In this document: positions 15,333-23,898 of the stretch, in pieces
Layout: every line of letters begins with the position of its first letter
How positions within the stretch are numbered: position 1 is the first letter of the stretch
Assembly: GCF_041248615.1 (NCBI RefSeq)
Contig: NZ_CP158426.1
Length of the DNA: 64,000 nucleotides
Reading direction: 5' to 3' (one strand)
DNA from: Escherichia coli
GTDB taxonomy: Bacteria; Pseudomonadota; Gammaproteobacteria; Enterobacterales; Enterobacteriaceae
Translations under genes and position numbers: made by a program
Notes under the pieces: model-generated
What the model was told of the DNA's origin: nothing
Seen by the model: the letters and a program-made list of their open reading frames with translations, nothing else
Databases searched by the model: none

Positions 15333-16361
15333 ATGGATTTATTAGCTGAGAGTATTACTGAAGTCGCTGTCTCTGGGGAAATTGCTAACACCGATCGTGT
15401 GTTAAATATCGCTTACGGTATTGACCGTAATTTTTTATTTGGTGCGGCCGTATCTATGCAATCAGTTGTTATGCATAACCCGGACCTTGCGGTTAAGTTT
15501 CATCTCTTTACCGACTACATTGATGAAGATTATCTACAACGTGTTAACGCTTTTACCAGCAAAAATGCTAACGTTGAAGTAAGAATTTATAAAGTCTCCA
15601 GTGCCTTTATTGATATTTTCCCCAGCCTGAAACAGTGGTCTTATGCAACATTCTTCCGTTTAGTTGCGTTCCAGTATCTGAGTGAAACTATTGAAAATCT
15701 GTTATATATCGATGCTGATGTCATCTGTAAAGGCTCATTAGCTGGATTGCTTGATATCAATTTTGATGGCGATAAGTTCGCAGCTGTTATTAAAGATGTG
15801 CCTTTTATGCAGGAAAAACCAGCGAAGCGTCTGGCTATAGAGGGACTTCCAGGTAATTATTTCAACGCCGGTGTAGTATATCTGCAGCTTGAAGCATGGG
15901 CGAAAAATGATTTTATGAATAAAGCCATTGCTATGCTGGCAAGTGACCCGCAGCATACGAAGTATAAATGCCTTGATCAGGATATTTTAAATATTCTGTT
16001 CTTTGGTCATTGTATTTTTATTAGCGGCGATTATGATTGCTTTTATGGCATTGACTATGAGTTAAAAAATAAAAGCGATGAAGATTATAAAAAGACCATT
16101 ACCGATGATACTAAGCTGATTCATTATGTTGGCGTAACGAAGCCCTGGAACGACTGGACGAATTATCCCTGCCAGAAGTATTTTAATGAGGCTTATCAGG
16201 CTTCTTGCTGGAATGATGTGGCGTTTATTCCAGCCACGAATGAAAAGCAGTATCAAGTGAAATCCAGACATTTGAAAAGAAATGGTAATATTGCATCTTC
16301 ATTTTACTATTTCATGCTCTATTATAGTAAGAAAATAGCGCGTAAGCATTTTTCCAAATAA
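15333..16361 (+). CDS. waaW: GT8-family LPS core alpha-hexosyltransferase (WaaW-like)
   Basis: 342 aa; YIDADV and HYVGVTKPWNDWTNYP motifs. Confidence 0.65.
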   Translation: MDLLAESITEVAVSGEIANTDRVLNIAYGIDRNFLFGAAVSMQSVVMHNPDLAVKFHLFTDYIDEDYLQRVNAFTSKNANVEVRIYKVSSAFIDIFPSLKQWSYATFFRLVAFQYLSETIENLLYIDADVICKGSLAGLLDINFDGDKFAAVIKDVPFMQEKPAKRLAIEGLPGNYFNAGVVYLQLEAWAKNDFMNKAIAMLASDPQHTKYKCLDQDILNILFFGHCIFISGDYDCFYGIDYELKNKSDEDYKKTITDDTKLIHYVGVTKPWNDWTNYPCQKYFNEAYQASCWNDVAFIPATNEKQYQVKSRHLKRNGNIASSFYYFMLYYSKKIARKHFSK

Positions 16362-16392
16362 TTATTAAGATTAATCACCCAGAGATTTTTTA

Positions 16393-17166
16393 ATGAACTT
16401 GCCCATTTATATTGTCTCACTTAAAAGAGATATTGAGCGAAGAAATAAAATAAATGATGTTTTTCATCGATTAAATATTAATTTTGATTTTTTTGATGCC
16501 ATAGATGCTAAAGACCCTCAAAATAAAGAAATTATTGATAAAATGAGATTAAGTGGTGTCGGCGCAGAAATGACTGATGGAGAAATTGCTTGTACATTAA
16601 GTCATCAGCTTATATATAAGGATATGATAGATAAAAATATAGAATGGGCAGTCATTCTCGAGGATGATGTTATCGTCAATGAGAAATTTAAAAAATTTCT
16701 GCAATATTTTAATCTTCCTGAAAAAGACAAGTTAAAACATAATAATTTGTATTTGCTTGGAGGACAGAAAGGATTACATGATTATCCGGTATTGGGGCAA
16801 AGCCTTTTTAGTAAAGTTAAGGTAAGTACTTGTACTTTTCGGCGTGTTAATTTCAATAAAAATAAAATTCGTCGTACATGTTCATATTTGATGAATAAAG
16901 ATATGGCACAAAAGTTGCTCAAATTGACAAAGGATTATGGCACCTATCGAGCTGATAGCTGGAAGTTAATGCATCAACATAATATTATAAAAGAGTTTTA
17001 TTTAGACGAAATAATATTACATCCTATTTTAAATGAGTTTAATAGTCATCTTGAAAGTGAAAGGCTATTAACATCGGAAAAAAAACAACCTAGAACAAGG
17101 CTTCAGAAAAGAATGAAGTTTATACGCTCCTGGATAAAGGTGGCTTTTTTTTCTCTTTTGAAATGA
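16393..17166 (+). CDS. GT25-family (Lic2A/LgtB-like) beta-glycosyltransferase; WaaV (R1) or WaaX (R4) equivalent
   Basis: 257 aa; N-terminus MNLPIYIVSLKRDIERRNKI typical of the GT25 LOS transferase family; directly precedes waaL. Confidence 0.65.
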   Translation: MNLPIYIVSLKRDIERRNKINDVFHRLNINFDFFDAIDAKDPQNKEIIDKMRLSGVGAEMTDGEIACTLSHQLIYKDMIDKNIEWAVILEDDVIVNEKFKKFLQYFNLPEKDKLKHNNLYLLGGQKGLHDYPVLGQSLFSKVKVSTCTFRRVNFNKNKIRRTCSYLMNKDMAQKLLKLTKDYGTYRADSWKLMHQHNIIKEFYLDEIILHPILNEFNSHLESERLLTSEKKQPRTRLQKRMKFIRSWIKVAFFSLLK

Positions 17167-17200
17167 GATTGTTAATTTCAATTTGTTGTGAGATATTAAC

Positions 17201-18454
17201 GTGGAAGTAAAAATTGAGCAATTTCGAAATAATAGCTGTAATTTTATTTTTTTATTGTATTTAATCGGTTTGTTGTTTGTGCCAATTGATCTTAATATCA
17301 CCACTAAAATAATTAATGCGACAGGTGCATTTTCTCTTTTCTTATTAATTGTAAATAAAAAGCACAATTATAATAAAAATGTCATTATATTAATTCTTGG
17401 TTTACTTCTTTTGGGTGCAATGAACCTTATATGGTATGAATTTTATAAAACAGAAGATGTAGTATATAGAAATGCTTATCGAGGCTACCTTGAGTCTGGA
17501 AAACTATTAGTATTTAGCTCGTTGACATTTTTATTACTAAGTAAAAATAAATTCAGGCAAAATGAAAAACTACATTTTATTTCAGCTATCTTAGTTCAAA
17601 TAATCATGCTATGTAGAGCATATTATCAAGGGATATATTTGCATGCAGACCGCATTCCCCTCTCCGCCATGAATGGGAATATTGGTCAGATGGGGGCAGC
17701 GACTATTGCGGCTTATGTGATTACATTTACAACTTTATATTCTTCAATTGTATTCATAAAAATGAAATCGAAATATAAATGGTTTCTATTTTATGCTAAC
17801 TTTGCTTTAAGCTTTGCAGCAGTAATGATGACAGGAACGCGTGCGGCAATTTTCACATTCCCACTTATGATTATGGTCATATTATTTCTTCAGCATCGTG
17901 ATCAAAAAGTGTTTTTATTTAAAGGATTGAGTGGTGTTTTTATATTGCTACTTGCTTGTGGTTTGATATTTAATAAGGAAATTGATAGGCGAATTAATTC
18001 ATTAAAAGCTGATGTTATTTCATATGCTACAAAAAATAACAGTCAATCCTCGGTCGGAGCACGTTTTGCAATGGTTAATGCAGGAATTAAAGGAAGTCCT
18101 GATGGTTTTAATTGGCAATCTCTTGAGCAGCGTGCTGAAAAGATAAAAGCATTAAGTGCAGAAAATAATATTTATAGTGGAGCTTTATTATTCCTTGATG
18201 TACATATGCATAACGAAATTGTGGAATCTCTTTCCACGAAAGGAAAAATTGGTCTTCTTGTTCTTATTATGTTCTATGTTGCAATGATCTATTACTGTAT
18301 ACGAGAGAAAAAATATATACTCTTGGTTTTCCCTGCTTCTATTATGTTATTTGGCATTAGTGATGTCATTACACATGCTAAACCAATACCGGCATCGTGG
18401 ATTGTGTGCCTCTTCCTGTCTATATCGTTTTTGAGTAAAAATGAACCACAATAA
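17201..18454 (+). CDS. waaL: O-antigen ligase
   Basis: 417-aa polytopic membrane protein at the end of the waaQ operon; GTG start uncertain. Confidence 0.75.
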   Translation: MEVKIEQFRNNSCNFIFLLYLIGLLFVPIDLNITTKIINATGAFSLFLLIVNKKHNYNKNVIILILGLLLLGAMNLIWYEFYKTEDVVYRNAYRGYLESGKLLVFSSLTFLLLSKNKFRQNEKLHFISAILVQIIMLCRAYYQGIYLHADRIPLSAMNGNIGQMGAATIAAYVITFTTLYSSIVFIKMKSKYKWFLFYANFALSFAAVMMTGTRAAIFTFPLMIMVILFLQHRDQKVFLFKGLSGVFILLLACGLIFNKEIDRRINSLKADVISYATKNNSQSSVGARFAMVNAGIKGSPDGFNWQSLEQRAEKIKALSAENNIYSGALLFLDVHMHNEIVESLSTKGKIGLLVLIMFYVAMIYYCIREKKYILLVFPASIMLFGISDVITHAKPIPASWIVCLFLSISFLSKNEPQ

Positions 18455-18501: not shown

Positions 18502-19461
18502 TTAAATTAATGTGATTTTTTTATAAACAGCCGCTGCTTCTAAATTATTTAAATTCATTAGCGGAGCCCTACAAACCACCTGATTCTTCCCATATCCGCC
18601 AATTAATCCCGGATCGGTTGGTCCATAAACCGTGATATTCGGTCTATCCAGTGCCGCCGTTAAATGGCTTAACCCCGTATCCACCGACACTACAAATTTA
18701 GCCCCGGCCAGTACGCGGGCAACGCCTTCCAGACTCATCTTCGGCAATACTTCAACATAAGCAAATCCTTCCGCCAGTCGTTTCGCCCGTTCTTCCTCAT
18801 GCGGCGCGCCCCACGGAAGTTTAATCCGTATTCCTGAATCAGCCAGTAAACCAATCAATTCTCGCCAGTGTTCTTCCGGCCAGTGTTTATCATCACGGGT
18901 CGTCGCATGAAGAAATACGGCATATTCGCCAGCATCTGTAGGCAGGTTCGTCAGGAAATGTTGTGCGATAGCATAATCACCTTGGGTTTGCGGTTTGCTA
19001 TAGCCCAAACTTTTGGCAAACAGTTCGCGGGTGCGTTCTACGGCGTGCTGCTGTTTTGCAATATGATGCTTACGATTGTAAAACAGGCTGGCTAACGGTT
19101 CTCGAACGGTTTGCCAGTCCATGCCATGCTTTACGCCATGCGCCAGACGCGTCACCAGCGCCGCGCTTTTTACCAGCCCCTGAGCGTCGATAACTGCGTC
19201 ATAGTTCTCTGCTTGTAGCGCTTCACGAAACGCTTTGCGTTCAGCTTTTATGGGGGCCGAGAACCAGGCTTTACGCCAGCGACGTATTGCCACAGGAATA
19301 ACTCGCTCAACGGCGGCGTGCCAGGAAGGAATCTGTGCGAACCCTTCTTCCACCACCCAGTCAAACTTAATCCCTGGGATTGCCTGCTGGGCATCAGTGA
19401 GTGCGGGCAGCGTATGGAGAACATCGCCCATCGACGATGTTTTAACGATCAAAACCCGCAT
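18502..19461 (-). CDS. waaC: LPS heptosyltransferase I
   Basis: 319-aa protein MRVLIVKTSSMGDVLHTLPAL... Confidence 0.95.
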   Translation of the reverse strand: MRVLIVKTSSMGDVLHTLPALTDAQQAIPGIKFDWVVEEGFAQIPSWHAAVERVIPVAIRRWRKAWFSAPIKAERKAFREALQAENYDAVIDAQGLVKSAALVTRLAHGVKHGMDWQTVREPLASLFYNRKHHIAKQQHAVERTRELFAKSLGYSKPQTQGDYAIAQHFLTNLPTDAGEYAVFLHATTRDDKHWPEEHWRELIGLLADSGIRIKLPWGAPHEEERAKRLAEGFAYVEVLPKMSLEGVARVLAGAKFVVSVDTGLSHLTAALDRPNITVYGPTDPGLIGGYGKNQVVCRAPLMNLNNLEAAAVYKKITLI

Positions 19462-19464
19462 CCG

Positions 19465-20511
19465 TCAGGCTTCCTCTTGTAACAATAGCGCGTTGAGTTC
19501 TTCCAGTACGCGCTGGGGAGTAATGTCGATCAAGCTCTGGTGATAACCCTCCGCAGCGTCACCTTTACGCACTTTGTGATAGCCGGTAATCAGGCGGATC
19601 ACGCGTGCTTTATGGGATAGCGGCGGTGTGAAGTCCGGGCTACTCGGACCATACAAGGCAACCAGCGGACGATTGAGCGCCGCCGCAACGTGCATCAGTC
19701 CAGAATCGTTAGTGACAATGGCTTTACAGGCTGCAATCAGGATAACCGCTTGATCAAGCTGTGTTTCCCCTGCCAGGTTCCGGCACCATGCCTGCTGCTC
19801 GGTATTTAAAGCGGCAAGAATCTCATTGCCCGCTTCATGATCTTTCGCCGAGCCAAACAGAACCACCTGATAACCTTCATCAATCAGCTGCTTTGCCAGC
19901 TCCGCATAGTGGTAGTGTGGCCAGCGTTTTGCCGGACCAAACTCCGCACCCGGGCAAAAGCCAATCATCGGACGTTCTGATGAAAGCGAAAATTGATTAC
20001 AGGTATATGATTTTTCACCTTCGCTCACCTGCAACTGCGGCCATAACAATGGCTGCGGCAGATCTTGTGCTGTACGCATAATGCCTTTGTCATAGGCCAG
20101 CGCGACATAGCGTTCCACCATTAGCGGCCAGGCTTCTTTATTGAGCACGCGTACATCGTTGAGTAAACCGTAGCGCATCTCGCCGCGCCAGCCGGTGCGA
20201 TGAGGAATACCCGCGAAGAAAGGCACTAATGCGGATTTGAAGGAGTTGGGTAAGACGTAGGCGCGGTCGTAGCGCTTTTCACGCAGACTATGACCCAGTT
20301 TGCGGCGTTCGCCGATTTCCAGCGCTCCGTGACCGAGAGGCATAGGAATAGCTTCGTTAACTTCCGGCATCCGCGATAATAATGGACGGCACCATGCCGG
20401 TGCCATCACGTCGATTATCGCCTGGGGATAGCGCGCCTGGAGCGTGCGATAGAGACTTTGCGACATCATCATGTCGCCAACCCAAGACGGGCCGATCACC
20501 AGTATTTTCAT
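19465..20511 (-). CDS. waaF: LPS heptosyltransferase II
   Basis: 348-aa protein MKILVIGPSWVGDMMMSQSLY... Confidence 0.95.
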   Translation of the reverse strand: MKILVIGPSWVGDMMMSQSLYRTLQARYPQAIIDVMAPAWCRPLLSRMPEVNEAIPMPLGHGALEIGERRKLGHSLREKRYDRAYVLPNSFKSALVPFFAGIPHRTGWRGEMRYGLLNDVRVLNKEAWPLMVERYVALAYDKGIMRTAQDLPQPLLWPQLQVSEGEKSYTCNQFSLSSERPMIGFCPGAEFGPAKRWPHYHYAELAKQLIDEGYQVVLFGSAKDHEAGNEILAALNTEQQAWCRNLAGETQLDQAVILIAACKAIVTNDSGLMHVAAALNRPLVALYGPSSPDFTPPLSHKARVIRLITGYHKVRKGDAAEGYHQSLIDITPQRVLEELNALLLQEEA

Positions 20512-20520
20512 GCAGAGCTC

Positions 20521-21453
20521 TTATGCGTCGCGATTCAGCCAGGCCATGTATTCCGTTACACCTTCAGCAACGGTTTTGAACGGTTTGTCGTAACCCGCCG
20601 CGCGCAGATTCGTCAGATCTGCCTGAGTGAACGCCTGATAGCGGCCTTTCAGTTTATCCGGGAACGGAATGTATTCGATCTGGCCTTTCTTGTGATAAGC
20701 AAGCGTTGCATCGGCTACAGCCTGGAAGGATTCCGCACGACCGGTGCCGAGGTTGAAGATGCCGGAAACGCCATTTTCCAGGAACCACAGGTTTACATCT
20801 GCCACGTCGCCCACATAGACGAAGTCACGTTTGAAGTTCTCGCTACCTTCGAACAGCTTCGGTGATTCACCGTTATTAAGCTGGGTGTTGAGATGGAAAG
20901 CGACGCTCGCCATGCTGCCTTTATGGCCTTCACGCGGTCCATAAACGTTGAAATAGCGGAAGCCAACAATCTGCGAGTTCGCTTCTGGCAGGATTTGACG
21001 AACATATTCATCAAACAGGAATTTTGAGTAACCGTAGACGTTCAACGGTTTTTCGTACTCGCGGGATTCAATAAAGTCGGAGGTGCGTCCGCCGTAAGTG
21101 GCTGCGGAAGAAGCGTACAGGAACGGGATTTCGCGCTCCAGACAGTAGTGCAGCAGCTCTTTGGAGTATTGATAGTTGTTATCCATCATATACTTGCCAT
21201 CCCACTCGGTGGTGGAAGAGCACGCGCCTTCGTGGAAAATCGCTTCGACATCGCCGAACTCTTCGCCAGCCATAATCTGGATCAGGAAGTCTTCCTTATC
21301 CATATAGTCCGCGATATCCAGATCCACCAGGTTCACAAACTTGGTGCCGTCTTTCAGGTTGTCCACCACCAGAATATCGGTGATGCCTTTATCATTCAGG
21401 GCCTTAACGATGTTGCTGCCGATAAAGCCCGCGCCGCCGGTAACGATGATCAT
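20521..21453 (-). CDS. hldD: ADP-L-glycero-D-manno-heptose 6-epimerase
   Basis: 310-aa protein [19 protein letters not shown] (Rossmann GxGxxG). Confidence 0.95.
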
Positions 21454-21666
21454 AACTGTAACCTTCGAATTATGGAGTCAGAGACAATCTCAGACACGAA
21501 TGCTTCTATCATATCACTACACGGCGTTGGCTTCAGCCATTCGCCAAAAGTGAGATTGATGGACGTTATTTATCCTGAATTTTGCAGAAGTGTTAACGCG
21601 TCATCTCGTCGCGACCTATAAGTTTGGGTAATATGTGCTGGAATTTGCCCTGTCTGGAGAATCGCA

Positions 21667-22863
21667 ATGCGTGGAGAATTTTATCAGCAGTTAACCAACG
21701 ATCTGGAAACCGCACGGGCGGAAGGGTTGTTTAAAGAAGAGCGCATTATTACGTCTGCGCAGCAAGCAGATATCACTGTGGCTGATGGAAGCCACGTCAT
21801 TAACTTTTGTGCCAATAACTATCTCGGACTGGCGAATCATCCGGATCTGATTGCGGCGGCAAAGGCGGGAATGGATTCTCACGGTTTCGGCATGGCTTCG
21901 GTGCGTTTTATTTGCGGCACTCAGGACAGCCATAAAGAGCTTGAACAAAAACTGGCGGCCTTCCTGGGGATGGAAGATGCGATTCTCTACTCTTCCTGCT
22001 TTGATGCTAACGGTGGCCTGTTCGAAACGCTGTTGGGCGCGGAAGACGCCATTATCTCCGATGCACTGAACCACGCGTCTATTATTGATGGTGTGCGTCT
22101 GTGCAAAGCTAAACGCTATCGTTATGCCAACAACGATATGCAGGAGCTGGAAGCACGTCTGAAAGAAGCGCGTGAAGCCGGTGCGCGTCATGTGCTGATT
22201 GCCACCGATGGTGTGTTCTCGATGGACGGCGTGATTGCCAACCTGAAAGGCGTTTGCGATCTCGCAGATAAATATGATGCCCTGGTGATGGTAGATGACT
22301 CCCACGCGGTAGGTTTTGTCGGTGAAAACGGTCGTGGTTCCCATGAATACTGCGATGTGATGGGCCGGGTCGATATTATCACCGGCACGCTCGGTAAAGC
22401 GCTGGGCGGGGCTTCTGGTGGTTATACCGCGGCGCGCAAAGAAGTGGTTGAGTGGCTGCGCCAGCGTTCTCGTCCGTACCTGTTCTCCAACTCGCTGGCA
22501 CCGGCCATTGTTGCCGCTTCCATCAAAGTGCTGGAGATGGTTGAAGCGGGTAGCGAGCTGCGTGACCGTCTGTGGGCGAACGCGCGTCAGTTCCGTGAGC
22601 AAATGTCGGCGGCGGGCTTTACCCTGGCGGGAGCCGATCACGCCATTATTCCGGTCATGCTTGGCGATGCAGTAGTGGCGCAGAAATTTGCCCGTGAGCT
22701 GCAAAAAGAGGGCATTTACGTCACCGGTTTCTTCTATCCGGTCGTTCCGAAAGGTCAGGCGCGTATTCGTACCCAGATGTCTGCGGCGCATACCCCTGAG
22801 CAAATTACGCGTGCAGTAGAAGCATTCACGCGTATTGGTAAACAACTGGGCGTTATCGCCTGA
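21667..22863 (+). CDS. kbl: 2-amino-3-ketobutyrate CoA ligase
   Basis: 398-aa PLP aminotransferase-family protein. Confidence 0.95.
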
Positions 22864-22872
22864 GGATGTGAG

Positions 22873-23898
22873 ATGAAAGCGTTATCCAAACTGAAAGCGG
22901 AAGAGGGCATCTGGATGACCGACGTTCCTGTACCGGAACTCGGGCATAACGATCTGCTGATTAAAATCCGTAAAACAGCCATCTGCGGGACTGACGTTCA
23001 CATCTATAACTGGGATGAGTGGTCGCAAAAAACCATCCCGGTGCCGATGGTCGTGGGCCATGAATATGTCGGTGAAGTGGTAGGTATTGGTCAGGAAGTG
23101 AAAGGCTTCAAGATTGGCGATCGCGTTTCTGGCGAAGGCCATATCACCTGCGGTCACTGTCGCAACTGTCGTGGCGGTCGTACCCATCTGTGCCGCAACA
23201 CGATCGGCGTCGGCGTTAACCGTCCGGGCTGCTTCGCCGAGTATCTGGTGATTCCGGCGTTCAACGCTTTCAAAATCCCCGACAATATCTCCGATGATCT
23301 GGCTTCCATTTTTGATCCCTTCGGTAACGCCGTGCATACCGCGCTGTCGTTCGATCTGGTGGGTGAAGATGTGCTGGTCTCTGGTGCAGGCCCGATTGGT
23401 ATTATGGCGGCGGCGGTGGCGAAACACGTTGGTGCACGTAACGTGGTGATTACTGATGTTAACGAATACCGCCTTGAGTTGGCGCGTAAAATGGGTATCA
23501 CCCGTGCGGTTAACGTCGCTAAAGAGAACCTCAATGATGTGATGGCAGAACTGGGCATGACCGAAGGCTTTGATGTCGGTCTGGAAATGTCCGGTGCGCC
23601 GCCAGCGTTTCGTACCATGCTCGACACCATGAACCACGGCGGTCGTATTGCGATGCTGGGTATTCCACCGTCTGATATGTCTATCGACTGGACCAAAGTG
23701 ATCTTTAAAGGCTTGTTCATTAAAGGTATTTACGGTCGTGAGATGTTTGAAACCTGGTACAAGATGGCGGCGCTGATTCAGTCTGGCCTCGATCTTTCGC
23801 CGATCATTACCCATCGTTTCTCTATCGATGATTTCCAGAAGGGCTTTGACGCCATGCGTTCGGGCCAGTCCGGGAAAGTTATCCTGAGCTGGGATTAA
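22873..23898 (+). CDS. tdh: L-threonine 3-dehydrogenase
   Basis: 341-aa zinc alcohol-dehydrogenase-family protein; kbl-tdh operon. Confidence 0.95.

Follow-up and report, generated by a model that had tools for sequence, protein, structure and literature searches.

In Escherichia coli K-12 MG1655 the gene order tdh, kbl, htrL, rfaD (b3617-b3619 from kbl to rfaD; NC_000913 3788000-3812000, locus L001 below) places htrL, also known as yibB (b3618, 858 bp, 285 codons), between the divergent genes kbl and rfaD (hldD), whose start codons are 1,435 bp apart. The earlier note on the DNA studied here had placed a gene of about 285 codons at this site in K-12, which is correct, and hldD and kbl are separated in MG1655 by the whole htrL spacer instead of being direct neighbours. 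A genomic SELEX study (PMC3946193) includes the K-12 htrL-hldD intergenic region among the sequences associated with H-NS, as is expected of AT-rich acquired DNA, and yibB appears as a variable gene in a pan-genome study of urinary isolates (PMC8303582). Apart from these two entries, our literature search found no paper that explicitly describes a polymorphism of the hldD-kbl junction.

The window, by which we mean the whole 64-kb stretch of E. coli DNA analysed here, carries the same two flanking genes in the same divergent orientation, separated by a spacer of exactly 213 bp (21454..21666) between the start codons of hldD (ATG at 21453..21451, minus strand) and kbl (ATG at 21667..21669, plus strand), as the earlier note had stated. 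The hldD gene (rfaD/gmhD; 20521..21453, minus strand) is a 310-aa ORF for ADP-glyceromanno-heptose 6-epimerase that is 97.5% identical to K-12 rfaD at the DNA level and whose product is recognised by the NCBIfam equivalog NF008360 (677.5 bits vs a cut-off of 452, residues 1-309 of 310). Downstream of it lie waaF (19465..20511) and waaC (18502..19461), both on the minus strand and identified as ORFs with matching annotated genes in the closed genome TUM14771. On the other side, kbl (21667..22863, plus strand; 398-aa ORF) encodes glycine C-acetyltransferase (2-amino-3-ketobutyrate CoA ligase; equivalog TIGR01822, 746.7 bits vs a cut-off of 493) and is followed by the second gene of the kbl-tdh operon, the threonine dehydrogenase gene tdh (22873..23898, plus strand; 341-aa ORF), named after its annotated counterpart in TUM14771 (L002 21620..22645).

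The claim that htrL/yibB is lacking between hldD and kbl was borne out and applies to the entire window, as the best tblastn match of K-12 HtrL in all 64 kb had an E-value of 0.11, spanned 33 aa, and fell at an unrelated position. Likewise, a sensitive blastn search with the K-12 DNA inserted at this site (the cassette described below) recovered only chance 12-mers in the window. The 213-bp spacer contains no ORF of the size of HtrL (family PF09612 / NF008462 / TIGR02192); as positive control, K-12 HtrL scored 435.9 bits with PF09612 and 550.5 bits with NF008462. The junction has the properties of what we call the short allele, i.e. start codons about 202-229 bp apart, no gene between them, and conserved promoter blocks. 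The hallmarks of the long allele, namely a spacer length near 1.4 kb, an htrL gene encoded on the same strand as kbl, and the variant segment ATGTGATGGTATGATTAC, are absent from the window, where the hldD promoter segment reads GTGTAGTGATATGATAGAAG, the native Escherichia version common to E. albertii and the E. coli species representative. We consider it very probable that the divergent promoter region of hldD and kbl is present here as a short allele in its intact form, from which nothing has been lost; the absence of htrL is real but ordinary, and can already be seen in public annotation.

Alignment of the window to K-12 yielded 98.3% identity from inside kbl to position 21563 and 97.5% identity from about 21502-21516 into hldD. 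The segment in between (21503..21562, 60 bp; 46-60 bp) has no megablast-level counterpart in K-12 and marks the site where K-12 carries a cassette of 1,267 bp (L001 4657..5923). More specifically, K-12 has a version of the hldD promoter segment that aligns with 21503..21538 at roughly 60% identity, and nothing in K-12 corresponds to the remaining 24 bp or so (21539..21562). The cassette has a GC content of 36%, compared to 51-54% in the flanking genes, and holds htrL with a hairpin terminator and an AT-rich promoter region of its own, plus a diverged hldD promoter copy, with the motif order on the hldD side being GGCTGAAG…TGGTATGAT in K-12 and GGCTGAAG…TGATATGAT in the window. Besides gene content and orientation of the flanks, the two strains share 104 bp upstream of kbl (99% identical), an identical 48-nt hldD leader, and the motifs TGnTATGAT and GGCTGAAG. 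MG1655 differs in its 1,435-bp spacer with the htrL cassette and the diverged hldD promoter segment, and further in the position of waaL after waaC and a central waa operon of the K-12 type. The break in homology (21502/21503) lies approximately at the predicted transcription start of hldD, so that the leader is common to both alleles and everything upstream of it differs.

Two blocks within the short spacer (21454..21666), which is conserved family-wide and encompasses the promoter regions of both hldD and kbl, are, judged from conservation, the putative core promoters of two operons, hldD-waaFC and kbl-tdh. For hldD, the candidate extended -10 element TGATATGAT (TGnTATGAT; 21508..21516, minus strand) is located about 54 nt before the ATG and coincides with the alignment columns TATCATA.CA (21507..21516), which are invariant across 12 genera or strains in the short-spacer alignment; the K-12 allele keeps this motif as TGGTATGAT. 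A putative -35-like hexamer, CTGAAG (21531..21536, minus strand), is found 17 nt upstream of the -10 element and matches TTGACA at 3/6 positions. It is part of the family-wide motif GGCTGAAG, which is present in most short alleles, in K-12, and in other long alleles, and is replaced by GGCTGTAG or GGCTGTCG in Klebsiella pneumoniae, Phytobacter, and an E. coli strain with R2 core. For kbl-tdh, the predicted -10 hexamer TAATAT (21629..21634, plus strand; 32 nt before the kbl ATG) lies inside GGTAAtATGTGC (21627..21638), in which every column is invariant except for a single, nearly invariant one, and this segment shares 99% identity with K-12. A consensus promoter and terminator scan of 21350..21770 called no sigma-70-like site, and an Rfam scan of 20400..22900 (E <= 1) returned no match.

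Both alleles are common in E. coli. A 613-bp junction query, counted as uninterrupted when at least 80% of it was covered in one place, was found uninterrupted in 3,465 of 5,426 complete RefSeq genomes (64%), and nearly all remaining genomes matched it as two separate halves. DNA of htrL was detected in 1,958 of the 5,426 genomes, always on the chromosome and with at least 80% of the gene in 1,950 of them. Uninterrupted junctions and htrL carriers together account for 5,423 of the 5,424 genomes with any match, and therefore htrL is either situated at the hldD-kbl site or absent. The complete RefSeq set is skewed towards clinical, outbreak, and laboratory strains, meaning that the 64:36 split does not equal a population frequency. 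The junction of the window is 100% identical over the 613 bp to that of TUM14771. Two individual genomes show additional variation at this locus: one IS1 copy splits htrL in NZ_CP080085 (strain 19SZHZ869Rt), and an IS903B copy resides inside the htrL-to-waaL stretch of NZ_CP139808 (strain FLI21). The 90-95% identity band of the junction search comprised 485 genomes. The short spacer of the R2 strain ESY001 (L004 15201-15413) is only about 90% identical to 21454..21666 of the window, and its kbl-proximal half contains bases of the Salmonella/Citrobacter type (GTGATTTATGCT, TCGTATCAAC) instead of those of E. coli/E. albertii. This spacer looks like an imported tract that accompanied the Salmonella-like R2 core.

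The earlier note had also described the waa core as being of a non-K-12 type, and in-silico PCR with the published LPSTyper primer scheme (PMC13293308) identified it as R4. A 380-bp R4 product was obtained at 16202..16581, with exact sites for both primers (R4-F in waaX, 16563..16581, minus strand; R1R4-R in waaW, 16202..16221, plus strand), and K-12, R1, R2, or R3 products were lacking in the window. The K-12 core test (K12-F in waaU and K12-R in waaY, 1,442 bp) found no site in the window with one mismatch allowed, the K-12 waaL probe had no megablast match there, and the R1 test (R1-F in waaV and R1R4-R, 842 bp) found no R1-F site. Control genomes gave the 842-bp R1 product (ATCC 8739 and EC19), K-12 (MG1655 and an ST131 strain), R2 (ESY001), and R3 (O157:H7). 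An R1 core had been considered for the window based on gene order and PGAP product names, and was rejected because of the R4 product; the loci containing a GT2 gene, in ATCC 8739 and EC19, are R1. The type-specific genes are waaX (16393..17166, plus strand; GT25, Pfam Glyco_transf_25), which includes the R4-F site, and an R4-type waaL (17201..18454, plus strand; Pfam Wzy_C). Together they (16393..18454) converge on waaC in the window, whereas waaL follows waaC in K-12. The window is a typical member of the R4-core strains without any relevant difference, as the R4 genomes TUM14771 (NZ_CP128875) and KE55 (NZ_CP141061) are 100% identical to it both over the 613-bp junction and over the 2,062 bp of waaX-waaL, and share its gene order, in which waaQ-G-P-O-GT8-Y-W-X-L is followed by waaC-waaF-hldD in the reverse orientation and by kbl-tdh-waaH. 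R4 cores have been reported mainly from phylogroups D, F, and G (PMC13293308). The suggestion that the whole LPS-core neighbourhood differs in gene content holds for the waa operon and htrL but not further, since kbl, tdh, waaH, yibQ, and envC onward are arranged as in K-12. In the O157:H7 strain 2159, waaH is annotated as a frameshifted pseudogene (L005 12221-13256).

The allelic state at the hldD-kbl site is strongly linked to the waa type, whose genes lie 3 kb away, yet it is not determined by core type. The 2,062-bp R4 waaX-waaL block was present in 690 of the 5,426 genomes, and a 3,779-nt chimeric query found htrL in just three of these, all pig isolates, the other 687 being devoid of it. 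These are ETEC1738, HCP5S3_I2, and LCP30S3_I5, the first of which has an internal stop in its GT8 core glycosyltransferase gene at the waaT position (L081 10885-11880). R4 waaX was also encountered on a few very small “plasmid” records, e.g. NZ_CP059911 (3,245 bp, strain 181.1) and 3-4 others, which are probably unplaced chromosomal fragments in assemblies labelled complete. K-12-type waaL-waaU occurred in 1,032 genomes, 451 with htrL and about 581 without. Chimeric queries were composed of an htrL piece, short hldD, waaF, and waaC linkers, and type-specific waaL/waaX pieces, and 60 evenly spaced rows of the resulting ranking were taken as a sample. All 15 R3 rows carried htrL and none of the six R2 rows did; the gene was present in four K-12 rows (six without) and in one R4 row (eight without), the latter being the top-ranked row, so that this class can be rare. 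Rows matched by no probe, which are R1-like, were divided into one with and 18 without htrL, and all three of their members that were opened turned out to be R1, namely ATCC 8739 and EC19 by in-silico PCR and the htrL-positive LR-71-1 by gene content. Hence, htrL is nearly fixed as absent in R4 and nearly fixed as present in R3. The 1,435-bp htrL spacer is 98.5-99.9% identical next to K-12, R1, R3, and R4 cores. Conversely, the ST131 strain 4993 combines a 213-bp short spacer about 99% identical to that of the window with a K-12 core (waaS-B-O-J-Y-Z-U, waaL after waaC) instead of R4. The connection drawn in the earlier note between the missing htrL and the non-K-12 core is therefore half right: it fits the 687 of 690 R4 genomes, but not the K-12-core genomes, less than half of which possess the gene, and a “non-K-12 core” does not explain the absence of htrL.

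The short spacer is widespread in other Enterobacteriaceae. Species-representative genomes were scanned with a degenerate pattern for the first 23 hldD codons (exact 23-residue HldD N-terminus), resulting in 73 loci; E. fergusonii, Salmonella enterica subsp. enterica, and Citrobacter freundii are among the species outside this set. Both hldD and kbl were visible in 66 loci, nearly all of them from other Enterobacteriaceae species, plus two E. coli-derived sequences, and in 61 of the 66 they were divergent neighbours 202-229 bp apart (mostly 212-217 bp) without HtrL. This arrangement was seen in Enterobacter, Citrobacter, Klebsiella, Raoultella, Kluyvera, Kosakonia, Pluralibacter, and Atlantibacter, as well as in S. 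enterica subsp. arizonae and diarizonae, E. albertii (213 bp), and the E. coli representative (213 bp). Three loci from Mangrovibacter spp. had spacers of 280-281 bp with about 65 bp extra, and HtrL was encoded in only two, those of Escherichia sp. MOD1-EC7003 and of an E. coli-derived contig in a “Bacillota” MAG. This MAG (“Bacillota bacterium OH_SDB_141”; JAEWTL010000015 and JAEWTL010000099) contains E. coli DNA with HldD and Kbl 99-100% identical, one contig with the short and the other with the htrL allele, which implies contamination by two different E. coli haplotypes. The short spacer of the window and 11 others align end to end with a mean column identity of 83%. Moreover, the 60 bp absent from K-12 are near-identical in E. 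albertii and recognisable in Citrobacter, Salmonella, Enterobacter, and Klebsiella. The motifs TATCATA.CA, CAGCC.TTC, TCATCTCGT, and GGTAA.ATGTGC are common to the window, E. albertii NBRC 107761, and these four genera, with differences limited to species-level substitutions and a 12-bp deletion in mid-spacer in Salmonella.

The polymorphism for presence or absence of htrL extends beyond Escherichia. The cassette of Escherichia sp. MOD1-EC7003 has the same junctions as that of K-12 and is 91% identical to it. A protein search further revealed HtrL relatives in genomes labelled Cedecea davisae (82% identity), Citrobacter amalonaticus (80%), and “Atlantibacter hermannii” (76%), and in all three loci (L083, L084, and L085, respectively) htrL is located between hldD and kbl in K-12 orientation and accompanied by an hldD promoter segment of the K-12 variant. 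The representative genomes of Atlantibacter and two further Citrobacter species carry the short spacer. HtrL proteins of 76-82% identity at the same site in three other genera imply that the long allele is old. The variant hldD segment is closer to the native sequences of Kosakonia, some Enterobacter, and Atlantibacter than to native Escherichia sequence, which hints that the cassette might have come into Escherichia from a different genus and brought a foreign hldD promoter copy with it. An additional argument for inter-genus transfer, built on an E. coli-like hldD leader in L085 that is unlike the A. hermannii representative (L040), was dropped, as the two are not conspecific (88% identity in kbl-tdh and 79% in hldD-waaF). 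More distant members of the HtrL family (53-60% identity) were noticed as lone genes within unrelated islands, one in Citrobacter sp. FP75 next to primase/DUF927 genes (L086 6001-6858) and one in S. enterica near mig-14 (L087 6001-6855).

The product of htrL offers some clues to a potential function. K-12 HtrL (L001 4827-5684, minus strand) belongs to PF09612, which Pfam annotates as bacterial and of unknown function, and its relatives are named “WlaTC/HtrL family glycosyltransferase” by NCBI. A PDB sequence search with HtrL gave nothing significant. The AlphaFold model (m3c4e020750b1; alignment of 28 sequences) reached a pLDDT of 90.1 and a pTM of 0.89, and its best PDB matches in a fold search have a GT-A fold, led by a GT8 xyloside xylosyltransferase (E-value 7e-6) and including GT6 blood-group transferases, α3GalT, a galactofuranosyltransferase, GT31 enzymes, and structurally related RmlA nucleotidyltransferases, with TM-scores of 0.42-0.46 at about 10% identity. 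The conserved DDDQG motif includes an invariant pair, D231-D232, as a candidate DxD motif of HtrL. Judged from this predicted structure, HtrL may plausibly act as a GT-A-type glycosyltransferase. Relatives of HtrL occur in LOS loci of Acinetobacter (PMC4172580).

In our favoured reading, the hldD-waaFC and kbl-tdh operons are set apart by some 213 bp, like those of almost all Enterobacteriaceae, and this spacer harbours two conserved putative promoter cores, TGnTATGAT with the upstream GGCTGAAG for hldD and GGTAATATGTGC for kbl. In K-12, most strains with R3 core (e.g. O157:H7), and a minority of others, about 24-60 bp of this spacer are replaced by the 1.27-kb, 36% GC cassette with htrL/yibB, its terminator and promoter region, and the diverged hldD promoter copy. 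Both alleles segregate in E. coli and are probably exchanged by homologous recombination, for which the conserved genes on either side would serve as substrate; this would explain why the state of htrL correlates with the adjacent waa core without being determined by it. The conservation of the 60 bp across genera bears on the direction of change: a deletion of htrL could not have recreated them, and we infer that the window represents the ancestral and majority spacer, with K-12 carrying an insertion.

The opposite direction, i.e. that htrL was ancestral in this lineage or in E. coli as a whole and was removed by deletion or by replacement with a short allele, is very unlikely in our opinion. 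It draws on the antiquity of the long allele, found at the same site in another Escherichia and in three further genera, and on long alleles in an R4 background (three genomes) and an R1 background (at least one), which indicate that alleles move between backgrounds. Nevertheless, the window shows no scar, and its spacer is collinear from end to end with those of E. albertii, Citrobacter, Salmonella, and others. This collinearity extends to the 60 bp, which a simple deletion could not have restored, so that loss would require replacement by a pre-existing short allele. The predominance of the short form among the 66 informative loci and the compositionally foreign nature of the cassette likewise point to insertion. 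Similarly improbable, if not quite to the same degree, is that htrL belongs to a core-specific gene set needed for K-12 or R3 cores and dispensable or incompatible with R4. The near-complete lack of htrL in R4, the uniform R3 and R2 rows in our sample, the predicted GT-A fold, and the Acinetobacter relatives would all agree with such a functional coupling. However, the roughly 581 K-12-type genomes without htrL, ST131 included, and the occurrence of the same cassette with R1, R3, R4, and K-12 cores argue against it, and linkage disequilibrium is to be expected even if the genes are functionally independent, htrL being only some 3 kb distant from those that define the core type. A misassembly or collapsed region hiding htrL has a negligible probability, given a junction 100% identical to that of TUM14771, thousands of independent complete genomes that match at 98% or more, and the same spacing throughout the Enterobacteriaceae.

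An intact short allele thus being the favoured reading of the window, K-12 is an atypical reference at this locus, and what is “missing” in comparison with it should not be taken for a loss. As the majority of genomes with K-12-type core do not contain htrL, the gene is unusable as a proxy for core type. Further, the region upstream of hldD differs between the alleles, and hence promoter data from K-12 may not transfer to the approximately 64% of sequenced strains with the short allele. A more far-reaching view would be that the hldD-kbl spacer is a long-lived two-allele site in several enterobacterial genera, where the long allele brings a GT-A-fold HtrL along with a diverged, AT-rich, H-NS-associated hldD promoter; we regard this as speculative and rather unlikely. 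If true, strains with the short allele would differ from long-allele strains such as K-12 and O157 in an unrecognised LPS modification, the regulation of the heptose/inner-core operon hldD-waaFC would differ between the alleles, and phages or hosts might exert the pressure that maintains the polymorphism. In any case, the natural presence/absence polymorphism of htrL provides ready-made, isogenic-like comparisons for the study of HtrL, which is probably a glycosyltransferase of the GT-A type according to its modelled fold.
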